From: Schmidtea polychroa
Taxonomy: Eukaryota
Direction: 5' to 3'
NCBI GenBank assembly: GCA_044892525.1
Contig: CM097886.1
Coordinates: 15,686,001 to 15,750,000, forward strand
DNA: 64,000 bases
Part shown: positions 39,358 to 64,000 of the stretch, in pieces
How positions within the stretch are numbered: position 1 is the stretch's first letter
Layout: every line of letters starts with the position of its first letter
Program-made: the position numbers and the translations under genes
Notes under the pieces: generated by a model
Database searches by the model: none
What the model was told of the DNA's origin: nothing
The model's input: the letters and a program-made list of their open reading frames with translations, nothing else

Positions 39358-40611
39358 ATTTCACAAATTAAAATTTTTAAGCTGAATAAGTTATCAAGAT
39401 ATCAAATTTTATTACCAGCAATTATTTTATTATCGTTATTATCACAGATTATTACAATACCCTTAAGCAAAAATGGTCGAAGTTATTTCCTTTATCACAG
39501 ATTATCGCCCTTGGTCATTGGACATTTTGGTTTTTGTGATTTATTTTATGAAATTATTTTAAGTTTATCTTTTGTTCCAAATAAACTGATTACTCGAAAC
39601 TCAAAATTATTATTTTATAGCTGTATAACTACTTTTAAAATAATATTGTTGGCTTTTACTGGATCATTTGGCCCAATTGGTTATATTGGTGCTGCTAATA
39701 TTATTGGGGTAATTATCCAGTTATTTTGCACTATGGAATTACTAATTTTTATTGATAAATTTATCGAAGAAAGCAATATAGAATATGGCGGAATAGCAAT
39801 TTATAATTCTATTCAAGTGTGTTCAGATTTTATTTGGTTTATAATGAGCCCTGTCGTTATAAAAGATTGCAATGGTCGGATGTTCGAAGGTTTATTTCTA
39901 GCGTTTATTCATTTAAGTTCTACACAAGATCCAATTTATGCTATTCGGAATTTAATTAGTCGAAATGGACATCCGGATTTTATTAAATTATTTTTAATCA
40001 TTGTTTCGACTTTGTGTATTATATTTATTCTAAATGTGAAAATCGTTTTCCAGTTTTCAGATTATCTTGATTGTGATGAAAAACGTTTTCATGCTCATTC
40101 GTATAGATTAATAACAACTGGATCCATTCCATTTCGTTTGTTTAATGCGATTTATTTATCGAGATCGGCAGTACCTTTTTTGAGAGATCGAATTATCAAT
40201 TCGTCTTCATCAACGGAAACGTGTATCGTTACACGACATGTGCCGAGCAATATCGATGAAATGTGCTATGGTTATTCATTAATCATTCAATCTCCAATGC
40301 CAAAACCGCTCGAATTTCAAGATTACTCTATTTCGTTTTTTATTTTGAAAATTATTTCTTGTATTATTTTGCATTTGAACTGGGTATTTTACGTTTCTCA
40401 TTCGCCTGGCTTTGTTCATGAAGATAAGTTAAAGGTTTCTCGCAGCATTGTTGTGAAATCAAAGGAAGAAATTGTCCGTTTGTTGAAATGTTCATCAGTC
40501 ATCAATGGTACTATTATTGGTGTTCTTGCTGTTTTGGGAGATTTCGTAAATTTCCCAATTGTCAGTTTGATTGGTTTTGTGAATTTTGCTACGCACTGTA
40601 TCAATTTTTAA
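39358..40611 (+). CDS. Highly divergent Sec61-alpha/SecY family translocon subunit (start unresolved)
   Basis: Colinear matches to Sec61A: TGSFG..IIQLF..IDK..GGIAIY..CSDFIW..SP..NGRMFEGLFLAFIHL..AIR..R..HPD..TGSIPF..CYGY..GTIIGVLAVLGDF. The frame is open upstream of the TTG to 39358 and includes a TM1-like segment (ILLPAIILLSLLSQIITIPL). Confidence 0.85.
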   Translation: MSQIKIFKLNKLSRYQILLPAIILLSLLSQIITIPLSKNGRSYFLYHRLSPLVIGHFGFCDLFYEIILSLSFVPNKLITRNSKLLFYSCITTFKIILLAFTGSFGPIGYIGAANIIGVIIQLFCTMELLIFIDKFIEESNIEYGGIAIYNSIQVCSDFIWFIMSPVVIKDCNGRMFEGLFLAFIHLSSTQDPIYAIRNLISRNGHPDFIKLFLIIVSTLCIIFILNVKIVFQFSDYLDCDEKRFHAHSYRLITTGSIPFRLFNAIYLSRSAVPFLRDRIINSSSSTETCIVTRHVPSNIDEMCYGYSLIIQSPMPKPLEFQDYSISFFILKIISCIILHLNWVFYVSHSPGFVHEDKLKVSRSIVVKSKEEIVRLLKCSSVINGTIIGVLAVLGDFVNFPIVSLIGFVNFATHCINF

Positions 40612-43335: not shown

Positions 43336-44092
43336 TGTCGAACCCATATGTTACACACGCCCATATCTTACGCAAAAAGAAAAAAATTACTAATACAAAT
43401 TTAAATCCCGAAAATGAAATACATTTTGACACTAGAAGAAATTGAAAAAATTAAAACTTGTCTAAATCAAGGAAGTAGTTGGATTACTGACTTAGATAGA
43501 CATTCAAAAAGAAATTTTATAAAGAAAGCTGAAAACTTTATTGAAGTGGAAAATAAGCTTTATCTAAAATCAGGAGAATGTAACAAAGAAATCATTGCAA
43601 ATGATGATGAAGTTGGCCTGCACAATTTATTTGAAAGATTGCATCTCCCTGACCACACTGGGATGAAAGCAATGTATGAAAACTCAAAACTCTTGTACGC
43701 GGGCTTCAAAAAGGAAAGAATAACGCGATATGTATCTTCTTGTTTAATATGCAAGAGACACGAGCCATTACCAAGAGTTGTACCTATAATCCCAATAATC
43801 TCGGAGTTTCCCTGGGAATTGGTACAGATGGATTGTGTAGATATGCGCAATTATCAAGAAGACAATGATGGATTTGGATGGATTTTGAATATCCTAGATT
43901 CTTATTCCAAATTTTTATATTCCTTTAAATTAAATAGGCTGAAAAAGATAATTTAGAAGAACAATAATTAAATTTCATTATTTAATTGCTTTTTATATAA
44001 TATTTTGGTGTTTTTATTGCTTTTTGTTTCTTTGTGTAGAATAAAAAAATTTTTGCGTAAGATATGGGCGTGCGTAAGATATGGGTTCGACA
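43336..44092 (+). mobile_element. Ginger2/TDD-like DNA transposon, internally deleted
   Basis: 43-bp TIR starting TGTCGAACCCATAT (2 mismatches), TGT..ACA ends, 5-bp TSD TCAAA, integrase-type ORF. Confidence 0.85.
43414..43956 (+). pseudogene. Truncated Ginger-type integrase/transposase
   Basis: HHCC zinc motif (LHLPDH...CLIC) and start of the catalytic core (QMDCVD..ILNILDSYSKF); second D and E missing. Confidence 0.85.
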
Positions 44093-48269: not shown

Positions 48270-50333
48270 TAAATGCACACAATATCAAGTTAAAGTATGC
48301 ATTAATGGTACACGGCATACTTGAATACATTATGTAGTTAATGTATACATTGTCTAAGTTTATGCTTTACCTGTTATATACACACACACACACTTATATA
48401 TATATATATATAAGTTATAAGTATTTAATGTAATAATTAGTTAATATTAGAAATTATATTTAATTATATTAAATATTATCCTCTCATATACTAAGGTGAA
48501 AGAAAAGTCAGGAAACCTCGAATTAAATACTTGAAAAATTAAAATAAATTATACACAATATTACTGAAGAATATTATTTTCATTTCTCATTTTAAAAGTT
48601 TATTCAAGATCTTTAGGAACATTGTTTTGTATTCTTAAAGCATTCAGTACTGAAACCAAGTAATAAATTTTAAATCCTTAATTAAAATAACAATTTTCTC
48701 GGTTTTATTTATAAATCAGTATCTTTCATTCTGTAATTTCCCATTATAATTATACATGGGATTCATAATGTATGGGAAACTTAACTCAAATTACTTTTAT
48801 AATGCATTGGATTTTATAATAATTTGCAAAACTTTCTCTTAGCCCTATATGACGTCTTGTAGATTTTTTTTTAAATATATCAAATATCAAAGGCGGCACG
48901 AAATACGAAGCTGTCCAACATGCGCATCACTGGTCTCATTTGATATGGAATTCAACATGTTCCCAATCAGTGCGCACCTATAGTTATTAGATTTGTTTAA
49001 CCCCTTTCCAGCAATCATGATTTACAATGCACGATTCACTAGAGACTTTATTCATTCTATCTGCATTAGATGTACTCAATCAAAAGACCGTAGAGATACA
49101 GGAGATTTTACCATTCCACATGTTGATAATTACAACAAGTCAAACAGAATAAGATTTCTTTTGGATTTTTATTAATAGGATTTTTATATAAATATATTAT
49201 ATTTCAAAACGAAAGATGAATATTATTTCACATGATTCCCGCAGAGGATAATGATGGATGCCTTATTATTATTATTAATGGATGAATAAATCTATGTCAA
49301 TTAGTAATGCTTCTTATCAAATTTAATTGCTACTTGTAAAGGAAAAGTTTCCCGACGTAATCTAATTAGAAATTTATGAATTATATTATTGTTAAGCTAT
49401 TTGTATTAAAATCCTGTACATGTCAATCAATGCCTCAACCAAGGGGATCAGTAAATCGAGACACTTCTACCTTTGGCCCTGTGTAAATATGTAGTAAAGT
49501 CAAGTCAACAAATTAGTAAAAAAGGTTTTATTTTAAAAACGATTAAAATATACATTGTAAAACTTACTTACATTTCCAGGAAATCCTAGTTACGATTGGA
49601 AATCAAAAGTCTTTTAAAAAATTTTTTGAATTTCAATCCGAAAGCTCGAGAAAATGGTTTAAAATCATAGAAAAAATTTATTTCTCATGTAAATAACTTT
49701 AAAATGAATTAAATTAAAATGTTTTGTTTAAATTCTTTTGTTTTGAATATTAGAAAACTTGACAAAAAAAACTACGTCTCCAAATATAAAATATTTACTA
49801 CCAAATGAAATCACAATTATCTAAATTTATGTCATAGCAGTACTTATGCAATAATTTTTCTCTCGCATATCCGTACCAAGTCCACACATGTACATGTAAC
49901 ATTTCATAGAACAGCACCTTTCGCATTCTTGGGCACAGTATCGTAGATCTGGAATACCTTTAGCNNNNNNNNNNNNNNNNNNNNNNNNNNNNNNNNNNNN
50001 NNNNNNNNNNNNNNNNNNNNNNNNNNNNNNNNNNNNNNNNNNNNNNNNNNNNNNNNNNNNNNNNNNNNNNNNNNNNNNNNNNNNNNNNNNNNNNNNNNNN
50101 NNNNNNNNNNNNNNNNNNNNNNNNNNNNNNNNNNNNNNNNNNNNNNNNNNNNNNNNNNNNNNNNNNNNNNNNNNNNNNNNNNNNNNNNNNNNNNNNNNNN
50201 NNNNNNNNNNNNNNNNNNNNNNNNNNNNNNNNNNNNNNNNNNNNNNNNNNNNNNNNNNNNNNNNNNNNNNNNNNNNNNNNNNNNTAGCAGCATTTATTAT
50301 TTAAAACAGTAGGGTATTGTGTGGACCCGGGAA

Positions 50334-50407
50334 CAAAGACATATGACGTCATCGATGACGTCACAAAGACATATGACGTCATACCCCACCCCCGGGGGAG
50401 GGGGGGC
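50334..50407. promoter_or_regulatory. Terminal region: three CRE/ATF palindromes and a GC-rich box
   Basis: TGACGTCA at 50344, 50356 and 50374; direct repeat CAAAGACATATGACGTCAT; CCCCACCCCCGGGGGAGGGGGGG. Confidence 0.6.
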
Positions 50408-50463
50408 TTTTTTTTTTTTAAATTTTTTTTTAAATTTTTTTTAAAAATTTTTTTTAAAAATTT

Positions 50464-50615
50464 ATATTACGTTGCGGTATTTTAAAATTTATATTACGTT
50501 GCGGTATTTTAAATTTTATATTACGTTGCGGTATTTTAAAATTTATATTACGTTGCGGTATTTTAAAATTTATTATATTTTAATTATTAAATATATTACG
50601 TTGCGGTATTTTAAA
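50464..50615. repeat. 27-bp tandem repeat (4 tandem copies plus 1 offset)
   Basis: Core ATATTACGTTGCGGTATTTT at 50464, 50491, 50518, 50545 and 50593. Confidence 0.95.
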
Positions 50616-50670
50616 AACTTATTGATAAAAGTTTAATAAAATAAAATTATTATTACACACACACAATATA

Positions 50671-50949
50671 GTCTACCCGACAAAATATTCTGTTCCCCTA
50701 TGGTCACACACACACACACAATGTATAAAAATATTATTTACACACACGCAACAAGTTAGTGTTCTCATTGATATATTAATAATCTATATACTCCGAGTCT
50801 ATCCGACAAAATATTCTGTTCCCCTATGGTCACACACACACAATGTATAAAAATATTATTTACACACACGCAACAAGTTAGTGTTCTCATTGATATATTA
50901 TTAATCTATATACTCCGAGTCTATCCGACAAAATATTCTGTCCCCCTAT
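50671..50949. repeat. 122-126-bp tandem repeat (about 2.3 copies)
   Basis: GTCTA[C/T]CCGACAAAATATTCTG at 50671, 50797 and 50919. Confidence 0.95.
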
Positions 50950-51023
50950 GGGTACTGCTCACAAGGGTACTGGTCACGCTCAACAACTCGCAAGGGTATT
51001 AATAAACAATGTAATAAAACATA

Positions 51024-51101
<78 letters not shown>

Positions 51102-51313
51102 ATTTCTATCACAAATCATGGTTAACAAAAAACATAGTCGAATATTATAAAATTAAGGTATTGTGTTAGCACACACTCGTTATAATAATTAGCAATATAG
51201 TTTTTATGGTGTATCAAATCAAAACCTTTCTTTTACATTTATAGTCTATCAACCAATCAAAATCATATGGTATTAGTATAAATAAAAACATTATATTTTA
51301 AATTATTTTAGAA

Positions 51314-51842
51314 ATGTCGCAACCAAATTTTATGGAAAATGTTCTAAACGGAATTGTCACCGCGAATATAGTCGACAGCCTCAATTTCCTGATCAATCGA
51401 ACCGAACAAATCATTGAAGGTGAACATATCGATTATCAGCAGATGATGGAGATGGAATCCCTGGAAACCAAGAAGTATTACTTCAATAGAATATTTCAGG
51501 GTCTTTTCGATGAAGACATGAAATGGACAAGGATAATTGTAGGATTCACCTACATGAAGATAATCATTGCAAAAGGTCAACATGATTCAGAACATTATTA
51601 TCATTGGTCTTTAGAAGTAAGATTTCTTTTATAATCTATATTTTAATAATATTCATTTCTAGATAATCAAGTCCAAGTTTACCCCATGGATAGAAGCCAA
51701 TGACGGATGGGGTGTATTAAATAAACTGGCCTGCAATTTTAAAGAAACTGATGAAATCAAAAGAAAAATGAAAAACTATATAAAACTTACAACTGGAGTT
51801 GTTATAATGTATATTTTCTGTAGATATATGAATAAAAATTAA
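51314..51842 (+). CDS. Bcl-2 family protein, 160 aa, 2 exons (51314-51616, 51663-51842)
   Basis: BH1-like LFDEDMKWTRIIVGF in exon 1. Removing a 46-nt GTAAGA..CTAG intron gives BH2 PWIEANDGW and a C-terminal hydrophobic tail LTTGVVIMYIFC-RYMNKN. Confidence 0.88.
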
Positions 51843-52354: not shown

Positions 52355-52774
52355 TTAAAATAGTTGTGAAAGTCTAGCAGACATAATTTTCCAAATTGGA
52401 GAATACACATCATTATTATCAACTTTATATCCTTGAATTGCAATTGTAATATACCAATTTTCGTTTTCTTTGAAACCGATTTCATCAAATGAATCATAAA
52501 ATCTTGCATATCTGTTGTTGAACCAGGCATGTTGATTACAAGATAGATTCGTATTCAACCGTTTGAAAACCTCATCAATAGATTTAACATCTAACATTGA
52601 AAGCGTGCCGGATAAGAATTGAAATTTAGTTGGAATTAGCTTGATCGGTGACACCAATTTTATATTGATTTCTTCTTTTAAAAAATACATTTTATAGTTG
52701 TGGAACATTTGAACAGGTTGTACAAGTTCTGGAACAACTTTTGGCTTTTCAGTGCATGAAATTTTCTTTGTCAT
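52355..52774 (-). CDS. 139-aa protein, possible OB-fold ssDNA-binding protein
   Basis: Intact ORF with TATA and CCAAT upstream; C-terminal YITIAIQGYKV...YSPIWKIMSARL resembles the final strands of T7 gp2.5-like/viral SSBs (inference). Confidence 0.6.
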   Translation of the reverse strand: MTKKISCTEKPKVVPELVQPVQMFHNYKMYFLKEEINIKLVSPIKLIPTKFQFLSGTLSMLDVKSIDEVFKRLNTNLSCNQHAWFNNRYARFYDSFDEIGFKENENWYITIAIQGYKVDNNDVYSPIWKIMSARLSQLF

Positions 52775-53042
52775 CGCAAATAATGATTAAAATGAAATGG
52801 TACAGGGTTTTTATACCTATGACTATTGTTTATTAACCAATCAGATTGCTGTATGTCTTTGTTTAAATTGCATGTCTTTGTTTAAATTGCATGTCATTTG
52901 CATTAATGTTGCATTAATGTTTTTATTATAAATATTGTTTTTTATTATTATTATTTCTAATATTACTATTATTACTTATATTATTTCTATTATTTCGATT
53001 TACAAAAACAAAACAATTCAACATAAAAAAAAAAAAAAAAAT

Positions 53043-53452
53043 TTATTTTGATACAATCTGACTCGAGTGATGATTTCTCAGAGTCTTCACCAAACACCAT
53101 TCAACATATTGTTGATAACGGAAATTGCAACAGCTACATCCGAAAATGCAAGGAGCCTCTGCGTTCATTTCTTTCATCCCCCTTCCTATCTTGATATCCC
53201 ATAGAAAGGTGTTTATTATATCGAATATCCAGATTCGAGTTTGGTTGTATACCAAATCCGGAATGATAGCTGGATCTCTATCTTGTAGAATTTCATTTAA
53301 TTCTGGATAATAGAAACATAATCTTTGCAGGATAATTGATTGATATTCATCTGTAAAAAATATATATATTAATGTAATAATAAAAATTTGAAATTACCAT
53401 AATTTGCATGCTCTTTCATTGAGGTGATTGCGGAACTTTGTATGTTGTACAT
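53043..53452 (-). CDS. Cys-rich orphan protein, 120 aa, 2 exons (53452-53398, 53350-53043)
   Basis: 47-nt GTAATT..TACAG intron joins MYNIQSSAITSMKEHANY to DEYQSIILQRLCFYYPEL...PCIFGCSCCNF. Confidence 0.72.
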
Positions 53453-53573: not shown

Positions 53574-54038
53574 TTAATTAAGTGATAATAAAAAATCTAA
53601 AAATTCTTTTCCTTCAATTATTGATTTAATTTCAGATATGATATTATCAACTATACATTTGTAATCAATATTTTTTATTCCAAGAATTACTATCTTACCG
53701 CTAGCGAATATATTTACACACATAGGGTTATATTTTATATATCTCAAAGCTGGAAATAATTCTGGTTCGTAAAAGCATGGTATTAATTTAGCCAAATTAT
53801 TTAAATTACAAGAAAAACCTATATCGGAAGTTACGGTTATCGATTGTATTTCTAAATCATAAACATTATATTCACTAGCTTTGATTATTTCCTTACACCC
53901 CATAATTCTACATTTACCAGTTTTGAAATATATTATTGGATATTTTTTACTTCTATTGATAAGTTGTTGTGGTTTCCCCACTGGAAATACCATTTTTGAT
54001 ACATCAGCTTTTGCCCTGTAATTTATATTTGAAAGCAT
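53574..54038 (-). CDS. TATA-binding protein (TBP)-like protein, 154 aa
   Basis: Repeat 2 FYEPELFPALRY..NPMCVNIFASGKIVILGIK matches TBP YEPELFPGLIY..KP..VLLIFVSGKVVLTGAK; shortened repeat 1 IIYFKTGKCRIMGCK. Confidence 0.9.
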   Translation of the reverse strand: MLSNINYRAKADVSKMVFPVGKPQQLINRSKKYPIIYFKTGKCRIMGCKEIIKASEYNVYDLEIQSITVTSDIGFSCNLNNLAKLIPCFYEPELFPALRYIKYNPMCVNIFASGKIVILGIKNIDYKCIVDNIISEIKSIIEGKEFLDFLLSLN

Positions 54039-54148
54039 TTTAATGAAATAATTATAAAAAACTCTGTTATATATATAGTTATTTTAAAAAGGAGTTCATT
54101 TAAATTATCAATATAAACAATAATTATATAGTTTAAATTTAAAAAAAA

Positions 54149-54787
54149 ATGGAATTACGAAATGATGTAGTATACCAAATCGTTGGTCCGAGTGGTAGTG
54201 GAAAAACATTATTTGTTTGTAAATTATTAAAATCTAATTTGTTCAAAACAAAATTCAACAATATTTATTGGCATAGGGGCGCCGGTGAAGAACATGGATT
54301 GACTTAATCAAGTTTCTGTCAATTGAAAAACATGAAAATAGTAAAGGGTTTTGATAAAAACTGGTCAAGTCGTTTGAAAAAAGATGATGTCATCATTATC
54401 GATGATTTGTATCAAGAAGCCAATAAAGAAAAGGATTTTAATAATTTATTCACAAAAATCAGCAGACATGTTGGTGTAACAGTTATTTTCATAACACAAA
54501 ATCTATTTCATCAAGGTGGTGCACATCGAACACGTAATTTAAATGTACAATATCTAGTTATTTTCAAGAATCCTAGAGATGCAACTGTCATCGATTTTCT
54601 TGGACGACAAGCATACCCTAATAACCGTAATTTTCTTATCAGTGCATTTCAAGATGCTACGAAAATACCTCATGGGTATATATTTCTCGATTTCACACAA
54701 CAATGTCCTGATGATATACGGGTAAAAACAGATATTTTCGACCCAAAAGGTGCCATGGTATATAAACAAAGTTTAAAACAAATTTGA
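54149..54787 (+). pseudogene. Polinton packaging ATPase (A32/FtsK-like) with in-frame TAA at codon 53
   Basis: ATG 54149; Walker A GPSGSGKT; TAA 54305-54307; Walker B IIIDD; FTKISRH, ITQN, RTRNLN, FKNPRD, HGYIFLDF. Confidence 0.93.
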
Positions 54788-54901: not shown

Positions 54902-55294
54902 ATGAATCTCATTTCGAAAAATCCTTAACCTAAAACTAAAAGTAAAACCACTAAGAAAGTAAAAGTTGTTAAAAATCATCGGAGTTTCCCGTTTTTCAAT
55001 ACATTGTTAAAAGCACCCAGTATGAAAAGAAACAGTATTTTGCAATCTTTTCCAAATTATGTTGTCGATGATTTACTCGATATTATACTTAAAGTAGTCA
55101 AAGGTAAGATTAAAATCAGTAAATCTAAAAAGCAATTATTGAGTAAACATAGGAAACCTTTGCTATCATTAGTAAATAATAAAAATCGTCAACAAATGAG
55201 AAAAATTATATATAAACAACAAGGGGGATTTATCGGTGCATTGATACCTTTAGCAATATCATTATTAGGTGGAATAATAGGAAGTCGATCATAA
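54902..55294 (+). CDS. Basic core protein, adenovirus pX/mu-like C-terminus (5' part damaged or start at 55022)
   Basis: Lys-rich; ends KQQGG-FIGALIPLAISLLGGIIGS, resembling pX MRGG-ILPLLIPLIAAAIG; in-frame TAA at 54926. Confidence 0.7.
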
Positions 55295-55297
55295 ACA

Positions 55298-55525
55298 ATG
55301 GGTGCTAATCCTTCATTACCAGACATTAAATTTAATATTAAATCTTCTTGTTGTAATGGAGAAGATTTGGACGAACCCAGAAGACGAAGCCGGTTTCGGT
55401 GGAGTGGCAAAATTAAACAAAAGAGTTCCGAATTCGAAAAAGGAAACCCAGAAGTGGTTATCAGACCAGCTTGCGTACAGTTTGAACAAACCAATGCAGA
55501 AACGATTCCCAACAAGAGTATATAA
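55298..55525 (+). CDS. Overprinted 75-aa ORF with N-myristoylation signature, overlapping integrase
   Basis: MGANPS (MGxxxS), SCC, basic RRRSRFRW; ACAATGG context 3 nt after the pX-like stop. Confidence 0.45.
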   Translation: MGANPSLPDIKFNIKSSCCNGEDLDEPRRRSRFRWSGKIKQKSSEFEKGNPEVVIRPACVQFEQTNAETIPNKSI

Positions 55526-56540
55526 AACATATGGAATAAATGATTTATGGCAAATGGATTTGATGGAGATGATACCTTATTCGAAAATTAACAATGGGTA
55601 TAAATATATTTTAACATGTATTGATGTATTCAGTCGGTTTGCCCGAGCAATACCCGTCAAGGCAAAATCTGCAGATGAAATGTCTAAAGCTGTTAATGAT
55701 TTATTTAAAGATGGACATCCTAATANNNNNNNNNNNNNNNNNNNNNNNNNNNNNNNNNNNNNNNNNNNNNNNNNNNNNNNNNNNNNNNNNNNNNNNNNNN
55801 NNNNNNNNNNNNNNNNNNNNNNNNNNNNNNNNNNNNNNNNNNNNNNNNNNNNNNNNNNNNNNNNNNNNNNNNNNNNNNNNNNNNNNNNNNNNNNNNNNNN
55901 NNNNNNNNNNNNNNNNNNNNNNNNNNNNAACAGTAAAGTCAAGCAAATCCTCGATAAACTGAAAATAAATCACTACTCGGTACATTCTCAATACAAAGCT
56001 GCCCATGTTGAAAGATTTAATCGAACATTGAGAGATAGATTAAAGAAATTGTTCGTGCATCAAGGTAATAAAAAATGGGTAAATGCTTTACCGAAAATAA
56101 TAACAAGTTATAATCATTCATCACATCGAGGACTTAATGGATTGAGACCGGTTGATATTACATCAAAAACAATCTATTCTAAGAAATCTGTAAAAATTGC
56201 AAAACCTAAATATAAAGTCGGTGACCATGTTAGAATTAGTAAAATTAGTGCATCACCATTTATTAAAAATTTCGATACAAATTGGAGTGATGAAGTCTTT
56301 GTAATTTCAAAAATAAATACTAGTCAGAATCCTGTAATGTATGTCATCAGTGATTATGATAACAATATTGTACAAGGAAAGTTTTATGAGCAAGAATTAC
56401 AAGTTATTCCTCCCCCAAAAGTATTTAGAATTCAAAAGATATTGAAAACTAAAAAGGTCGGCAAGGATAAACAATTCTATGTCAAATGGCATGGTTATCA
56501 AAACCCATCATGGATATCAGAAAAGGATCTAGTAAAGTGA
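55356..56540 (+). CDS. Retroviral-type (c-)integrase with C-terminal chromodomain (N gap inside)
   Basis: WQMDLMEM, LTCIDVFSRF, AHVERFNRTL, KYKVGDHVRI, WSDEVF, chromodomain IQKILKTK..FYVKWHGY..SWISEKDL. Confidence 0.96.
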   Translation: MEKIWTNPEDEAGFGGVAKLNKRVPNSKKETQKWLSDQLAYSLNKPMQKRFPTRVYKTYGINDLWQMDLMEMIPYSKINNGYKYILTCIDVFSRFARAIPVKAKSADEMSKAVNDLFKDGHPNXXXXXXXXXXXXXXXXXXXXXXXXXXXXXXXXXXXXXXXXXXXXXXXXXXXXXXXXXXXXXXXXXXXXNSKVKQILDKLKINHYSVHSQYKAAHVERFNRTLRDRLKKLFVHQGNKKWVNALPKIITSYNHSSHRGLNGLRPVDITSKTIYSKKSVKIAKPKYKVGDHVRISKISASPFIKNFDTNWSDEVFVISKINTSQNPVMYVISDYDNNIVQGKFYEQELQVIPPPKVFRIQKILKTKKVGKDKQFYVKWHGYQNPSWISEKDLVK

Positions 56541-57553
56541 ATTTTTATACTATTTTACCAAGCAATAGTTGCCCGCTTATTCATCCAGATAATCAAGCCA
56601 GTAAATTCATGGTCAATCTCCAGAATCCGATTTCTTTAAATGGGGACTGGGAAGTTGCACTGCAAGATTTTACATTCGTGTACAATACATTCCCATTTTA
56701 TAGTCAATGTAAGATTGATTTCAAAAGGAATGCTATGAAAACATGTAGCGGTATCTTTATTATCAGTAATTATGATAAAACATATCATATTCCAAATCAA
56801 CTATTAAATCAGCACTGCTCTATGTTTTACAAGGATGGATTAAATATCAGTTGTGATTTTAAACCATTTACAATAACATTCGAATATATTGAAGATGCCA
56901 AACGATTGGGTTGCAATAAGTTGAAAAATGAAGTTATGGAAACAGAATATTTATTACGCTTTAATCTATTTGAAGCAAACAGTGTAATGAGAGAAGAAAT
57001 CAAAATATCAGTGTCGTATAATAATGAAGTTGAAGAATCATTCACCTTTGCTGACGAATTATATATTGATAAACTTGATGTGTTACTTAAATATTTAAAG
57101 TACAATTGTTCACACATATTTAAAAGTTTGGACATTGTGAAAGATTTGATGTTTACCTTCAGTTTGAATGATGATATTTGCGAAGTTACATTTGATAAAA
57201 ATTTGACAAATACACTTGGATTAGAGAAGCAGCAATATCGGGAAAAATCGGCTGGTATACGTAAACCAAGAATACTTGAACATCATCAACAAATGTTCAT
57301 ATATACTAATATTATTGAGCCTATAATTGTTGGTGATTCCAGTGTTCCTCTTTTGAAATCGGTATGGATTGGAAAATATGAACATGATGAAGTTGTCAAT
57401 ATAAATATCGATAATCCCATGTATTTACCAATAGCAAGCTCATGTATAAACAATATAGAAATAAATATTCGTGACGATAGTGGAAAACTTATAAACTTCC
57501 CAAAAGACTCAAAAACTCATTTGACACTACATTTTCGTAAAGTAGATGGCTAA
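56510..57553 (+). CDS. Penton/minor capsid protein (start ATG 56510 or GTG 56537)
   Basis: FYTILPSNS, F.VNLQNPISLNGDWEVALQD, FIYTNIIEPIIVGDSSVPLL, IEINIRDDSG..INF, LTLHFR. Confidence 0.92.
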   Translation: MDIRKGSSKVNFYTILPSNSCPLIHPDNQASKFMVNLQNPISLNGDWEVALQDFTFVYNTFPFYSQCKIDFKRNAMKTCSGIFIISNYDKTYHIPNQLLNQHCSMFYKDGLNISCDFKPFTITFEYIEDAKRLGCNKLKNEVMETEYLLRFNLFEANSVMREEIKISVSYNNEVEESFTFADELYIDKLDVLLKYLKYNCSHIFKSLDIVKDLMFTFSLNDDICEVTFDKNLTNTLGLEKQQYREKSAGIRKPRILEHHQQMFIYTNIIEPIIVGDSSVPLLKSVWIGKYEHDEVVNINIDNPMYLPIASSCINNIEINIRDDSGKLINFPKDSKTHLTLHFRKVDG

Positions 57554-57908
57554 TTCCGATATTATTAGTATGTATAGTGATAGCCAATCTGGCGGTGAAT
57601 TACCATATTTTATTGGTAAACAGTACGGATCAGGTTGGTTAAAAACAATAGGGAGATTTGCACTTCCTATTCTTAAACGTATCGGTAGTTTTGGTATGAA
57701 AACTGCAAAAGATGTTATTATGAATGAACAGAAAATATTACCATCCCTAAAAACAAATGCTTTAGCTGAGTTAGGGAAGGTTCTACCTGGAGTTGCTGGT
57801 ATGTTTCAAAAAGATACGCCCCCAGCCCCAGCTCCAAAACGTAAAGGACATGGAATATCGCGTATAAACAAACGAATGAAAGGACATGGAACTATATTTA
57901 CAAAATGA
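57546..57908 (+). CDS. pVI-like/membrane-active virion protein
   Basis: QYGSG followed by amphipathic WLKTIGRFALPILKRIGSFG; basic C-terminus; lies between penton and MCP. Confidence 0.75.
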   Translation: MANSDIISMYSDSQSGGELPYFIGKQYGSGWLKTIGRFALPILKRIGSFGMKTAKDVIMNEQKILPSLKTNALAELGKVLPGVAGMFQKDTPPAPAPKRKGHGISRINKRMKGHGTIFTK

Positions 57909-59128
57909 TTTGTGGTAAATCTGAATTATGTATATTTGATAGACCATCGCCTCAAGCGGTAATCGAATTTGGGGCCTTTGAGGAAGTTTTTCCTATGAAT
58001 TCAATTACTGATAGTAGAAATGATATCGAGTTTTATATTAATGGTTCACAAACTGAATATTTAGATTTGAATGATACTTTATTGACTGTTCAGATCAAGG
58101 TTGTAGATAAAGATAGAAAAGTTTTGGATGCCAATGCAGATGTAATACCGAACAATTTCATGTTTCATACTCTGTTTAAAGATGCAGTCTTGGGATTTAA
58201 TAATATTAAGATTGAGGCCGGAAATAATACATTCATTCACAAGGCTTTGATAGAAACTATTTTAAATTACAATTCTGATACTAAAAATACCTGTCTTACA
58301 CCTATGGGTTATGCAGCAACAGATGATGAAAGAAAAAAGTGGGTTAAAGGCTCAAAATCATTCACTATGTGCTCATCATTACAACTCGATTTTATGGATC
58401 AACCGAAATATTTGCTACCAGGAGTTAATGTACACATTAGATTGAAAAGGTCTGATTCTGCATTATCTCTTACTAGTGCAACTGGTGCACCAATATGCCA
58501 ATTAGTTGATGCAAAATTATTGGTGAGAAGAGTTCGAGTAGACCCGTCAGTATTAGCTGGTCATCAATTGGGTCTTAATTCAAAACATGCAATTTATCCT
58601 TTAAAAACAAAGGAAATTGTACAATTTGCTATTGCTAAAGGTGCTTCATCATTCTATAAAGAACAAATATTTGGTGACAGAAGAATGCCTAATTTTATTC
58701 TGGTAACATTTCAAAATGAAACGCAATATAATGGATCATATACTGCTTCCAGCTCAATTTTCAAAAATTTTGGTGTTACTTCATTGACTTTGTCGAAAAA
58801 TACTGATTATAGAGAAACATATACTCAAGATTTCGAAAGCGATAATTACTGTGCGACATATATGCAGAGTATTGTTAGAAATCTGGGTTACTTAGATAAA
58901 AACTTGAATTGTGGAATAACTCTAGAAGAATTTAAAAGCAAATATCCATTTTTTACATTTGTTTTAGCCCCTGATTTTGATTTAAATCAGAGTCAACTAC
59001 CACAAAACGGGAATTTACGACTGGATATTAAGTTTGCAAAAGCTATTACTGAACCGGTACATGTTATAATATATGGAGTATTTGAAAATGAAGTTCAAAT
59101 TACTGCAAATAGAACCGTGCTAGTATAA
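57905..59128 (+). CDS. Major capsid protein (double jelly-roll, Polinton type)
   Basis: CGKSELCIF..P.Q, IEFYI, YLDLNDT, KYLLPGVNVHIRL, FFTFVLAPD, GNLRLDIKF. Confidence 0.95.
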   Translation: MICGKSELCIFDRPSPQAVIEFGAFEEVFPMNSITDSRNDIEFYINGSQTEYLDLNDTLLTVQIKVVDKDRKVLDANADVIPNNFMFHTLFKDAVLGFNNIKIEAGNNTFIHKALIETILNYNSDTKNTCLTPMGYAATDDERKKWVKGSKSFTMCSSLQLDFMDQPKYLLPGVNVHIRLKRSDSALSLTSATGAPICQLVDAKLLVRRVRVDPSVLAGHQLGLNSKHAIYPLKTKEIVQFAIAKGASSFYKEQIFGDRRMPNFILVTFQNETQYNGSYTASSSIFKNFGVTSLTLSKNTDYRETYTQDFESDNYCATYMQSIVRNLGYLDKNLNCGITLEEFKSKYPFFTFVLAPDFDLNQSQLPQNGNLRLDIKFAKAITEPVHVIIYGVFENEVQITANRTVLV

Positions 59129-59540
59129 ATGTATACAGAAACACAAAAAGTTGTCATGGAGTAAGTTTTTTGATACTGTTTAATTTTATTAAAGTAGTTC
59201 TGTTCAGGTTAATCGAATTGGAAAACAAATATTAGGAAATGAATTTGTAGGAGTTTTTCCTCTTGATAAAATTCCTTATTTGAGCAATAATCAAGCCATA
59301 ATCATCAATACTCATTCGTCTCATCTTGGTGGAGAACATTGGATAGCTATATATGTGAAACCTAGTAATATATTCGTATTCGATCCTATGGGTTTCTATT
59401 ATCCTGCTTTGTTGATATCAAAACTTCAAACAATTGGGAAACCTATTGTATATAATAAAACTATGTTTCAAAATCCATTGACTCAAACATGTGGTCAACA
59501 CTGTTTGGCATGGTTGTTGTATAAAAAATTTGATGGTTAA
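59129..59540 (+). CDS. Adenain-like cysteine maturation protease, 2 exons (59129 or 59156-59160, 59195-59540)
   Basis: 34-nt GTAAGT..AAAG intron gives MDSSVQVNRIG..FVGVFPLD; catalytic GEHW, FDPMG, FQ, CGQHC. Confidence 0.92.
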
Positions 59541-59908: not shown

Positions 59909-60189
59909 ATGAACAACAACAACAATATTCAAAGAGTTGACGGAAAGATCGTTGGAGGAATTAATGGTAAATTTATTATTTTATTATTTTATTATTTTTA
60001 ATATGATTATTAGGTACTAATCAACAAATTAAAATGAATATCGACGGACAAGCTGTAGACATGAATAGAATAAATGGTAATAGTTTACTCTTATTATCAT
60101 TATTATTTTTATTATGCTTTTAGATGGAAATGTAATAAATACTTCTGCTGGTGCTGATGCTGGAAAATTTCTTTCGAAAGGACGAAAAT
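59909..60189 (+). CDS. Three short exons (59909-59966, 60014-60076, 60124-60189), probable 5' end of the pPolB gene
   Basis: Two 47-nt GT-AG introns, all phase 1, giving MNNNNNIQRVDGKIVGGINGTNQQIK...KGRK; GTAAGT donor at 60190. Confidence 0.65.
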
Positions 60190-60236
60190 GTAAGTATTTA
60201 TTTATTGTTATAAGTTTTTAAGTTTTTTTAAACAAT

Positions 60237-60918: not shown

Positions 60919-63900
60919 GTTTGAAATACCAAAACTTTTGTAATAGTCAATATCATAATGACTGCGATGATATAATGGAAAGATATTATAGTCATAAATA
61001 TAACGGTGTCACCTACATCCTATGCCCTAAATGTGAGGTTATTGAAGTTATAACGTATAAGGAATTTTATAATAAGCATAGACTCCATCTCCAACAATTT
61101 AAACCTTCTAAGAAGTCTCTTTTCTATAGCTTANNNNNNNNNNNNNNNNNNNNNNNNNNNNNNNNNNNNNNNNNNNNNNNNNNNNNNNNNNNNNNNNNNN
61201 NNNNNNNNNNNNNNNNNNNNNNNNNNNNNNNNNNNNNNNNNNNNNNNNNNNNNNNNNNNNNNNNNNNNNNNNNNNNNNNNNNNNNNNNNNNNNNNNNNNN
61301 NNNNNNNNNNNNNNNNNNNNNNNNNNNNNNNNNNNNNNNNNNNNNNNNNAACAGCACCAATAATAATAATAATGATATAAACGAAATAAATAATCTAAAA
61401 GATCAAGTAAATAAATTAAATGAACAAATAAATAATCTAATTAATATGAATAAAAGAAAAAATAATGAAAAAATAAATTCAATACCAAGTAAAAAATCTA
61501 AAGTTATTGATGTAATCACAATAAGTGATGATGATGAAATAATCAACATAAGTGATGAGGAAATTGATAATAATAATAATAATAATAATAATAGTAGTAG
61601 TAATATTTATTATAATAATCGTATTAATAATACTAATCAAATAGGTTATGGTGTCGTAGATGTCACCAGTGATTTAAATAATAATCATATTATATTAAAA
61701 ATGGACTTTTCGTCTTTAGATTTAAAAACGGTCTCTGTACCAGAAATTTTAATAAATAAATTAAATTTATATGTAAATAAATTAAAATCATGTAAAATTC
61801 AATTTTGTCTAAAGGTGGAATTTATAAAAGATGATGAGTTACAATCTTTTGTAATCTCGAATTCCGCCCGAGTTTGGAGCGATACATTCATTGACGAAGG
61901 TATTGCTCGTTTAAATGAAAAAATAATTAAAATTAATGAGAAAGGTAGTAATTGGACTATCAATAAAATAGAATACATAAGCTTTGTTCTTACTAAATTT
62001 GCTGAAATAAGTCGATTAAGTGGTAGAAGTTTTATTGAAACCCCAAAATCTTTAAGAAACTTAAGCTGTCTCATTAATGTAGTTAATAATGACCACTTCT
62101 GCTTTTTGTATAGTTTCTTGTCAATTATTAAATATGACTGTATAAATAGGCAATATAGAAATCGCCCTAATTCCTACAATCTTTCTGAAATTAAATTTGA
62201 TCCTAATGATATGCCGATGAAACTATCAAATATAAGTAAATTTGAACAACAAAATCCGGGTTATAGTATTAATGTTCTTACTTATAACGAAAAGGCTTTG
62301 ATTGACATTTCCGATGAAGATGCAGTTATGAAACATCCCTTTATTGATATAATATACAGGAGTAAGATAGTAGGAGCCATACCTATCAATTTATTATTAA
62401 TCGAAAAGAATGATAATTATCATTATCTTGGAATCACAGACCTAAATAGATTTCTTAATTGTAGGAATAGTTCAATCACTCCTGTTTGGATTTGTAGTCA
62501 GTGGTGCCCTAGATGTTTAAACGGTTTTAGGAATGATGACGCTTTTAATAGACATAAGGGTCTTTGCGATAAAAATCAGCTTGGTACTACCTTGTACACA
62601 TTGCCTAAAAATAAATATTTAGAATTTACTGATTGGAGTAAAACAGTTACTCCTCCCTTTGTTATTTACGCTGACTTTGAGGCTATCTTACCTAAAGACA
62701 CTCGCTACTTTCAACGTCATCTGCCTATTTCTGCCGGTATGCTTTTTATTAATAATTTCACAGGCGTAAAAATTTATAAGTCGTTCACCGGTTTAGATTG
62801 TGTCGATCAATTTCTTACTGAAATTGAAATGATAGGGAAATATATTGTAACTCCTTATTATTATAAAAATTATCAAAAGAAAATGATAATTACAGATGAG
62901 CAACAATTAATGTTTGAAAACAGCACATCATGTTATTTGTGTAATAAGCCTTTAGTTAATCCAGTTAGGGACCATGATCATTTTACCGGTCTATATCTTG
63001 GTGCCGCTTGTACAACTTGTAATCTGTCGAGGCAAATTAGACATACCCTTCCTGTAGTATTTCATAATTTAAAGGGTTATGATCTGCATCATATCTTGAA
63101 ATTTGGCCTTTCAAAATATCATTCGTGGAATATTAGTTGTATTCCTTTAACCAGCGAGAAATTCCTTAGTCTTTTTGCTAGGATTGACTCATTAACTGTT
63201 AAATTTATAGACTCTTATCAATTTGTCAGCGAGTCTTTAAATAATGCTGTCAAAACTTTATCATCTTTACCCTTGACCGAATCAGAATTTCAGGGTACAA
63301 TAATAACTGCAAAGGGAATTTTTCCTTATGATGTCGCAACTTCATTAGAGGTTTTACATAACACTCATCAGTTACCACCTATTTGGAAAGATGTGACTCC
63401 TGCTGAATATGAGACAGCTCAGCGAATTTGGGTTGAAACTTCATGTACTTCACTTTTCAATTACATGATGGTTTATTTAAAACTTGATGTTTTCCTTTTA
63501 GCCGATTTTTTCCAGCAATTTAGAGCTAAGTCCATTGCTCATAACCGACTAGAGCCATTAAATTTCTTAGGGATTCCAGGTATGTCTTGGAATTCAGCCT
63601 TATTAACTTTAAACTCTCCAATTGAGCTCCTCACCGATATGGAGATGTATAACTTTTTCGAGAGCGGTATCCGTGGCGGACTAACTTTTGTAAACAAACA
63701 TTATGTAAAAACAGACCCGGATACCGCTTTGCTTTACATAGATATAAATAATTTATACGGTTGGGCTTTAAGTCAACCATTACCTTGCAGTGACTTTGAA
63801 TGGGTTACTGATGATAATTTATTAAATAATATAATTGTTGAATGCACAACGGTAGATTTAGATCTGCTTGATTATGGTTATACCATAGAAGTGGATTTAG

Positions 63901-64000
63901 AAATACCGACGTCAATTCACGACAAACTGGACGATCTTCCCGTTGCCGCTGAAAAGATGTGTGTACCGGGTTCGAAAATAGAGAAGCTGTTGCTTACACA
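60919..64000 (+). CDS. Protein-primed family B DNA polymerase (pPolB), runs off the window; absent from ORF track
   Basis: Open frame (codons at positions divisible by 3) on both sides of the gap; NNDHFCF and HY (vOTU-like), YADFE, CYLC..DHDHFTG..CTTCN, FHNLKGYD, KGIFPYD, YLKLDV..LAD, GIRGG, YIDINNLYG. Confidence 0.96.

Follow-up and report, generated by a model that had tools for sequence, protein, structure and literature searches.

Previous studies have reported virus-encoded TBP-like factors in herpesviruses and nucleocytoviruses. The late genes of beta- and gamma-herpesviruses carry a variant TATA word (TATT), and ORF24 of KSHV has a viral TBP fold in which V122, T124, V161 and L205 are made polar, as set out in the passages of PMC12529657 available to us, including its Table 1. 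According to the same passages, ORF24 is a large multidomain protein of 752 aa with a Pol II-binding N-terminal domain and with all four Phe; the stirrup glutamates are absent, TFIIB binding is predicted to be missing, and other viral factors act together with it. The nucleocytovirus TBPs are also virus-encoded and have a degenerate regulatory surface on the N-lobe; the available passages of PMC7221094 report that their first stirrup Glu is only ~40% conserved and that nearly all of these viruses encode their own TFIIB. The word 'polinton' had 0 occurrences in those passages. In print, the only mention of TBP together with Polintons that we found was the label 'TBP' in a MELD-virus figure legend of Starrett et al. 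2021 (PMC8502044), in a search that had subscription journals and Repbase outside its coverage. The available passages of that paper gave no promoter word or function for the label and did not make family membership evident, and the part of its supplement that was searched contained no match for TBP or for the family motifs. In the literature searched, we found no description of how Polintons time the expression of their capsid and packaging genes.

In the present study, we analysed a window of 64,000 nucleotides of Schmidtea polychroa (the whole stretch of DNA under study), in which a Polinton of 16,178 bp (16.2 kb) carries a gene for a TBP-like protein. The original prediction, made from the letters of the window, had named an intact ORF of 154 aa at 53574–54038 on the minus strand, and this was borne out by the ORF list. 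The Pfam TBP model (PF00352) matched residues 62–125 with 55.7 bits against a cut-off of 22.9; the single matching stretch was repeat 2, and repeat 1 was invisible to Pfam. A sequence search of the PDB gave 35 matches, all 35 of which were TBPs or TBP fusions, and an atlas search gave TBP clusters only. The AlphaFold2 model, for which 75 homologues served as input, had a pLDDT of 96.3. In this predicted model, strands were found in both lobes, H1 of repeat 1 was absent, and H2 was replaced by a helix of 4 residues. Comparison with TBP chains (for example, yeast 66–240) gave Z scores of 12.2–12.6 and an rmsd of 2.5–2.9, and the top unrelated structure entry reached a Z of 6.2. Because 141–144 residues could be aligned with the TBP chains, the protein was regarded as two-lobed, and the model indicated that the ORF is a two-lobed TBP fold. 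The claimed TBP homology was thus supported both by Pfam and by structure comparison, with a Z of up to 12.6 on the predicted model.

The segment lengths of the protein were compared with those of 79 cellular TBP cores. The N4–F38 spacing was 34 residues versus 47 in 79/79 cores, and the G47–S66 spacing was 19 residues versus 34 in 73/79 and 35 in 6/79 cores. Repeat 1 was accordingly 13 and 15 residues short, which matched the earlier by-eye estimates exactly, and the GCK–IQS interval held 14 residues, as had been read. Repeat 2 was well kept, with E91-P92-E93, F95 and F111 all in place, in line with the claim of an intact EPE stirrup and both Phe. Three of the four intercalating Phe were retained; F38 corresponded to F116, and a K occupied the F99 position, so the suspected loss of one repeat-1 Phe proved correct. 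In common with TBP, TBPL2/TRF3 and TBPL1/TRF2 (PF00352), the protein has the two-lobed saddle, N69, F116, F190, P191, F207, S209, K211 and E186/E188, and it shares the word YEPELFP in repeat 2 with eukaryotic TBP. It differs from eukaryotic TBP in having neither H1 nor most of H2 in repeat 1, in lacking F99, in the replacement of V71, V122, T124, N159, V161, I194 and L205 by other, conserved residues, and in belonging to a mobile-element-encoded family on a long branch. In the fold search, nucleocytovirus TBP-like proteins had E-values down to 8e-8 at 8–22% identity, and herpes proteins ranked low (E 0.004–0.03), so that close kinship with them was not evident. Unlike ORF24, the TBP-like protein has ~150 aa, is stand-alone and retains the stirrup. 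It may work like a herpesviral TBP mimic, which would be a likeness in working and not one of membership.

Table 1 of PMC12529657, within the passages available, lists the DNA-reading positions of yeast TBP, and we counted the residues at these positions in an alignment of 192 family rows, 170 of which were full-length. Cellular TBPs have V122, T124, L205, N159, V161 and V71. In the family, V122 was replaced by R in 184/185 rows, T124 by M in 188/189, L205 by N in 191/191, N159 by S or T in 190/191, V161 by T or S in 188/191, V71 by N in 143/172, and I194 by R in 152/192. V122, T124, V161 and L205 are likewise the positions made polar in KSHV ORF24. F116 (184/184), F190 (191/192) and F207 (191/191) were kept across the family, and a Phe near position 99 was found in only 6 of the 170 full-length rows. 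The N-terminal repeat of TBP contacts the 3' half of the TATA box, and the changes in this repeat of the TBP-like protein were the loss of F99 and the gain of N71, R122 and M124. Position 114, at which Leu is the source of the clash at TATA position 7, stayed hydrophobic in the family (I 50%, V 33%, L 16%), which counts against a changed reading of that TATA position. Both segments of repeat 1 were short in 121/170 full-length rows, and 29/170 had near-canonical spacing. Because all 29 near-canonical rows carried R122, M124 and N205, the rewiring and not the shortening defines the family, and the shortening of repeat 1 is likely to be secondary.

The surfaces for partner proteins were also compared. 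The acidic TFIIB stirrup was nearly invariant in the family, with E188 in 190/192 rows; the first stirrup Glu (E186) was present in 180/192 and the elements yielded no TFIIB, which sets the family apart from the nucleocytovirus TBPs. The N-lobe basic patch positions were gapped or variable. In the available passages of PMC7221094, the N-lobe H2 surface is assigned as the contact for TFIIA, TAF1, Mot1 and Brf, and this agrees with the contact surface for TFIIA, TAF1 and Brf1 on which the original prediction had relied. Its reading of a virus-captured TBP held in so far as the homologue is carried by a virus, retains the stirrup and no longer has the N-lobe H2 surface; from these features we infer that the protein may bind TFIIB and, having lost that surface, may escape TFIIA/TAF control.

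The element has the hallmarks of a Polinton, namely inverted repeats with AG-type ends, a 6-bp target duplication, a protein-primed PolB and an rve integrase. The left terminal inverted repeat (50308–51199) starts with AGTAG, and its partner ends 2485 bases beyond the window; AGTAG stands at both ends, and the duplication TAAAAC flanks both (left copy at 50302–50307). The TBP-like gene lies within these repeats, as had been claimed, and a location outside the element was ruled out. Other mobile-element remains were seen outside the Polinton at 39733–40611 and 43414–43956, the second ORF being a weak integrase zinc-binding match. Near the left end, a Bcl-2-like ORF (51314–51634, plus strand) scored 21.4 bits in Pfam, below the cut-off, with CCAAT and a canonical TATA upstream; Bcl-2-like ORFs were also observed in other Polinton subfamilies at 22–58% identity. 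ORF139 (52355–52774, minus strand, 139 aa) also has a canonical TATA upstream. Its confident model resembled uncharacterised proteins of giant viruses and bore a weak likeness to DNA-binding proteins of phages and baculoviruses; judged by this model, it is possibly a single-strand binding protein. ORF139 was found near the TBP-like gene in 21/81 loci, and a TFIIB-like identity was rejected by structure comparison of its model. Two small genes, at ~53020–53451 (minus strand) and 59909–60200 (plus strand), looked spliced, with short AT-rich GT–AG introns read by eye; the apparent introns are consistent with nuclear Pol II transcription. In one of four contig sets, which was guessed to be RNA, a contig ran unspliced across a putative intron, an observation neutral as to expression.

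The candidate promoter of the TBP-like gene (54039–54077, minus strand) has TATATATA at a distance of 39 nt from the ATG, which is directly preceded by TCATT, a word that resembles the initiator consensus. On the opposite side, the 8-base word YATAAACR stands at 54112–54119 (plus strand), 37 nt before the ATG of the ATPase gene, as a putative late promoter. The A32-type packaging ATPase (54149–54787, plus strand) is head-to-head with the TBP-like gene and has one in-frame stop here; it was full length in 25/30 of the closest copies, and its Pox_A32 match was weak in this copy, close relatives being annotated as such. Another YATAAACR box lies in its 3' end (54761–54768, plus strand) and encodes YKQ. 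The genes that follow are all on the plus strand. The small basic ORF 'PX' (55022–55294) contains boxes at 55211 and 55290, and a 75-aa ORF starting with MG (55298–55525) was conserved in 6 relatives. The rve integrase with a chromo-like C-terminus (55356–56540) has 394 aa from the first ATG, and its rve match, which extends across an internal run of N, had an E-value of 2e-6, below the cut-off. It is followed by a putative minor capsid protein (penton; 56486–57553), named by position and conservation, with a box at 57445; a conserved 120-aa ORF, 'PW' (57546–57908), whose box at 57863 encodes INK; and a putative major capsid protein of 407 aa (57905–59128), with a box 42 nt before its ATG. Neither capsid candidate had a Pfam match. 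An adenain-like protease region (59129–59540) was recognised by motifs read by eye, and its frame is broken near the start here. The capsid and protease genes were named by their position, size, motifs and conservation, and PX, PW, penton, major capsid and adenain are used as putative labels. The protein-primed-type PolB (60975–64000) runs on in frame to 1078 bases beyond the window; PF03175 was above the cut-off in related elements, whose PolB was 55–72% identical to the one here.

No RNA polymerase was found among the ORFs of the Polinton. For TFIIB, there was no match in 11 window ORFs or 16 neighbour proteins, a search that a divergent or spliced form could escape, and a genome-wide TFIIB search gave 32 candidates versus thousands for Polinton genes. 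The host TFIIB gene is split by introns, and many TFIIB-like copies exist in the genome. Thirteen TFIIB-family matches with open frames of 301–310 aa were located at C3:38.2–39.1 Mb and C1:23.8–24.2 Mb (L168), and the one of this group that was read is an intronless divergent TFIIB.

The distribution of the gene was then evaluated in the genome of the host, an AT-rich eukaryote, and in metagenomes. The best 150 of 4135 genomic candidates were scored, and 150/150 had 97–100% identity; stop-free frames were found in 149/150 of these scored copies, a figure biased toward the best matches. The gene also occurs in other subfamilies of this genome, at 52–63% identity. A first homologue search returned 97 homologues, mostly of 145–160 aa. 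In a profile search of proteins clustered at 50%, most of the 150 top matches listed shared the family motifs, the 140 further representatives in this listing being mostly family members. A Polinton core gene was present at 38/80 metagenome loci and at 26/35 loci of at least 3 kb, so that the proposed check for other Polintons carrying the gene gave a positive answer. At 42/80 loci, mostly short, there was no core gene, and the same held for 9/35 longer loci. These loci are not independent samples, and the denominator of 80 includes L112, which groups with cellular TBPs and is no family member. The position of the gene varied: it adjoined the ATPase at some loci and followed the protease or PolB at others. 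An exonuclease-like ORF of ~160 aa was observed in 22 loci (L040, L059–L091 and others), with DxE read by eye and no Pfam match, and KilA-N, C2H2 zinc-finger or phospholipase-A2-like genes are additionally present in some elements.

Most pairs with dS >0.3 had a dN/dS of 0.08–0.26 (one pair, 0.38), and near-identical pairs gave noisy values of 0.06–1.2. A quick tree of 92 rows, without bootstrap, included TBPs from cells (14), the host (6) and viruses (4). The family was set apart from all of these by a branch 1.04 long with an SH-aLRT of 99; the cellular side also held L112 and three representatives. The host genome contains a canonical TBP and five divergent full-length paralogues (L136–L141; C1:244.96 Mb, C1:41.96–42.00 Mb, C2:182.64 Mb, C2:132.29 Mb, C1:195.75 Mb), none with the family motifs, and two of the five divergent paralogues are intronless over the core. 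A host TBP pseudogene or recent capture was rejected, as the six host TBP-like loci grouped with cellular TBPs and dN/dS was well below 1; at least 150 near-identical copies exist, with no near identity to a host TBP. The three refuting conditions attached to the original prediction all failed: the fold was confirmed, the gene proved widespread with a dN/dS of mostly 0.1–0.25, and it sits within the inverted repeats. Taken from the sequences, the evidence indicated that the TBP-like family is Polinton-linked and under purifying selection. No donor emerged from the tree, and the presence of YEPELFP suggests that the source was eukaryotic and not archaeal.

To evaluate the YATAAACR box, we counted it in 80-nt upstream regions from which near-duplicates had been removed, with expectations from dinucleotide shuffles. 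On the sense strand, the box was present in 61/76 upstream regions of virion and packaging genes versus 1.6 expected, in six gene groups chosen after the motif had been noticed by eye; on the reverse strand, it was present in 0/76. By gene, the counts were 19/21 for the ATPase, 15/19 for PX, 9/10 for the major capsid, 7/9 for the phospholipase-like gene, 5/5 for the MG-protein and 6/12 for the penton. The remaining groups gave 1/7 for PW, 3/5 for the protease, 6/12 for the integrase, 8/11 for the exonuclease-like gene and 2/18 for ORF139. The box was thus neither universal nor confined to structural genes. An unbiased hexamer count on the chosen gene set ranked ATAAAC first, and the distance from box to ATG was mostly 31–48 nt. 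Between 54112 and 59785, seven boxes lay on the plus strand and none on the minus strand. Over the whole window, there were 19 matches versus 21.9 expected, and because of this lack of overall enrichment the signal is positional. The nearest sites of two genes in this copy were imperfect, namely GATAAACA for the penton and TATAAATG for the protease. Where the box overlaps upstream coding sequence, ATPase 3' ends had the codons YAT AAA C in 20/21 (background product ~0.44), PW genes had ATA AAC in 7/7 (~0.18), and zinc-finger genes had CAT AAA in 7/7 (~0.27). These codon counts indicated that the box overlap fixes synonymous codons.

The TBP-like genes themselves showed a different upstream pattern. 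The box stood before 0/53 of them, canonical TATA before 19/53 versus 4.1 expected, and TATA with initiator spacing before 15/53 versus 1.3 expected. In this copy, the TBP-like, ORF139 and Bcl-2-like genes have a canonical TATA 37–41 nt before the ATG.

As a control, we used a second family of Polintons that is also present in many copies in this genome (C2:104939934–104955102, L133 and L115; 15.2 kb between inverted repeats), with 98 of 3247 capsid candidates scored. No TBP-like gene was found inside the inverted repeats of five copies (top profile score, 4.6 bits), a TBP-like match near copy B4 falling outside its repeats, and the box was present in 0/27 upstream regions. The contrast is confounded because this second family, a single lineage, also has a different capsid module. 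TBP-less Polintons with the same capsid module were absent from the IMG/VR scans with capsid and ATPase queries, and further genome searches for TBP-less controls returned the two known families and fragments only. In the second family, a phospholipase-A2-like region is fused to the integrase, as judged by eye, and a T-rich tract that ends in AAAATG lies ahead of its genes, perhaps as mere translation context.

Collectively, we consider it probable that the TBP-like protein is a viral late-promoter factor that reads YATAAACR and recruits host TFIIB and Pol II, and the capsid, packaging and integrase genes are likely to be switched on by it, as their upstream sequences suggest. Host TBP would first transcribe the TBP-like gene through the canonical TATA and initiator, and the TBP-like protein would then engage the minor groove of YATAAACR. 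Positions 1 and 7 are where the box departs from TATAWAWR, and the polar-for-hydrophobic replacements would let C fit at both of them. The acidic stirrup would dock TFIIB, with the host protein proposed as the partner because none was found to be encoded in the element, and loss of the basic N-lobe surface would free the protein from TFIIA, TAF1, Mot1 and Brf control. In sum, these steps would amount to an early-to-late switch from one 150-residue protein. The link between protein and box rests on their co-occurrence and on one negative lineage.

Other explanations were weighed against this late-promoter reading. The box is unlikely to be the target of a host factor (TBP, a divergent paralogue or a forkhead protein), with the viral TBP-like protein being accessory or acting elsewhere. 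The host does have a canonical TBP, its five divergent paralogues and many TFIIB-like copies, and ATAAACA within the box matches the forkhead core. However, the forkhead variants GTAAACA (3) and GTAAATA (2) were not enriched in the 76 upstream regions, the reverse strand had 0, and ATAAACG occurred 13 times in the upstream set; a forkhead site was disfavoured on these counts. As for host TBP, TATAAAC departs from the consensus at position 7 only, a change that host TBP partly tolerates. A TATA variant with C(-25) is bound by host TBP (PDB 1qn3), only through Hoogsteen pairing according to the available passages of PMC4402545, and the best-tolerated changes are at positions 1, 6 and 7 in those of PMC10005294. 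A host TBP site would nevertheless favour the canonical words, and neither TATAAAA (5/76; expected 4.9) nor TATAAAT (6/76; expected 4.1) was enriched; CATAAAC was present in 22/76, and C at position 7 is required. A host reader is also at odds with the finding of the same box in elements from varied environmental samples and with its being missing from the other Polinton family in the same host.

The original prediction had offered two functions, and the dedicated promoter factor is the one favoured here. The other, a dominant-negative decoy that dampens host transcription by soaking up TFIIB or blocking host TATA promoters, appears improbable, although the near-invariant TFIIB stirrup, the missing TFIIA/TAF surface, the loss of one intercalating Phe and the presence of another host-modulating gene (the Bcl-2-like ORF) would all suit it. 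A TFIIB sink would have no need of an invariant, altered DNA face, and a blocker of host TATA boxes would have kept the canonical face. A decoy also leaves the box unexplained, and the element itself needs host Pol II, since it has no RNA polymerase among its ORFs. The preference for a dedicated factor over a decoy comes from a DNA face that is altered yet invariant, together with the existence of a promoter word to match it. We gave equally little credence to a non-transcriptional role in DNA binding (replication, packaging or single-strand binding), with the box as an RNA-processing or packaging signal. A preference for single-stranded DNA is reported for Giardia TBP, in which three of the four Phe are missing (PMC12209930, passages available), a probable DNA-binding protein gene adjoins the TBP-like gene in the 21/81 loci noted above, and the box looks like a poly(A) signal. 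Against this, the TBP-like protein retains three of four Phe together with the stirrup for TFIIB, and the distance from box to ATG is narrow. AATAAA was at expectation (16/76 versus 15.7; AATAAAC, 2), which disfavoured a poly(A) signal. An RNA-processing signal is further contradicted by the frequent position of the box inside upstream coding sequence, ahead of its stop codon, and by the gene upstream of the ATPase box, which runs the opposite way.

These results place a conserved Polinton gene family among the viral TBP-like factors, most probably as a late-promoter factor. For the wider reading, that a widespread Polinton clade has its own early-to-late switch, the smallest known viral initiation module and a third viral solution, we lean slightly in favour. 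If true, this solution would stand beside the herpesvirus complex and the giant-virus TBP–TFIIB pair, and it would be direct genetic evidence for a viral replication programme in Polintons. It would also be a natural case in which TBP, a highly constrained protein, changed its DNA specificity with the TFIIB contact kept, and so would bear on how TBP reads DNA and offer an orthogonal promoter–factor pair. The factor and its matching word make it testable whether animal Polintons behave as viruses, since a single small protein and a site of 8 bases are all that is needed. As the genome has at least 150 near-identical copies of the gene, any expression could touch host transcription.
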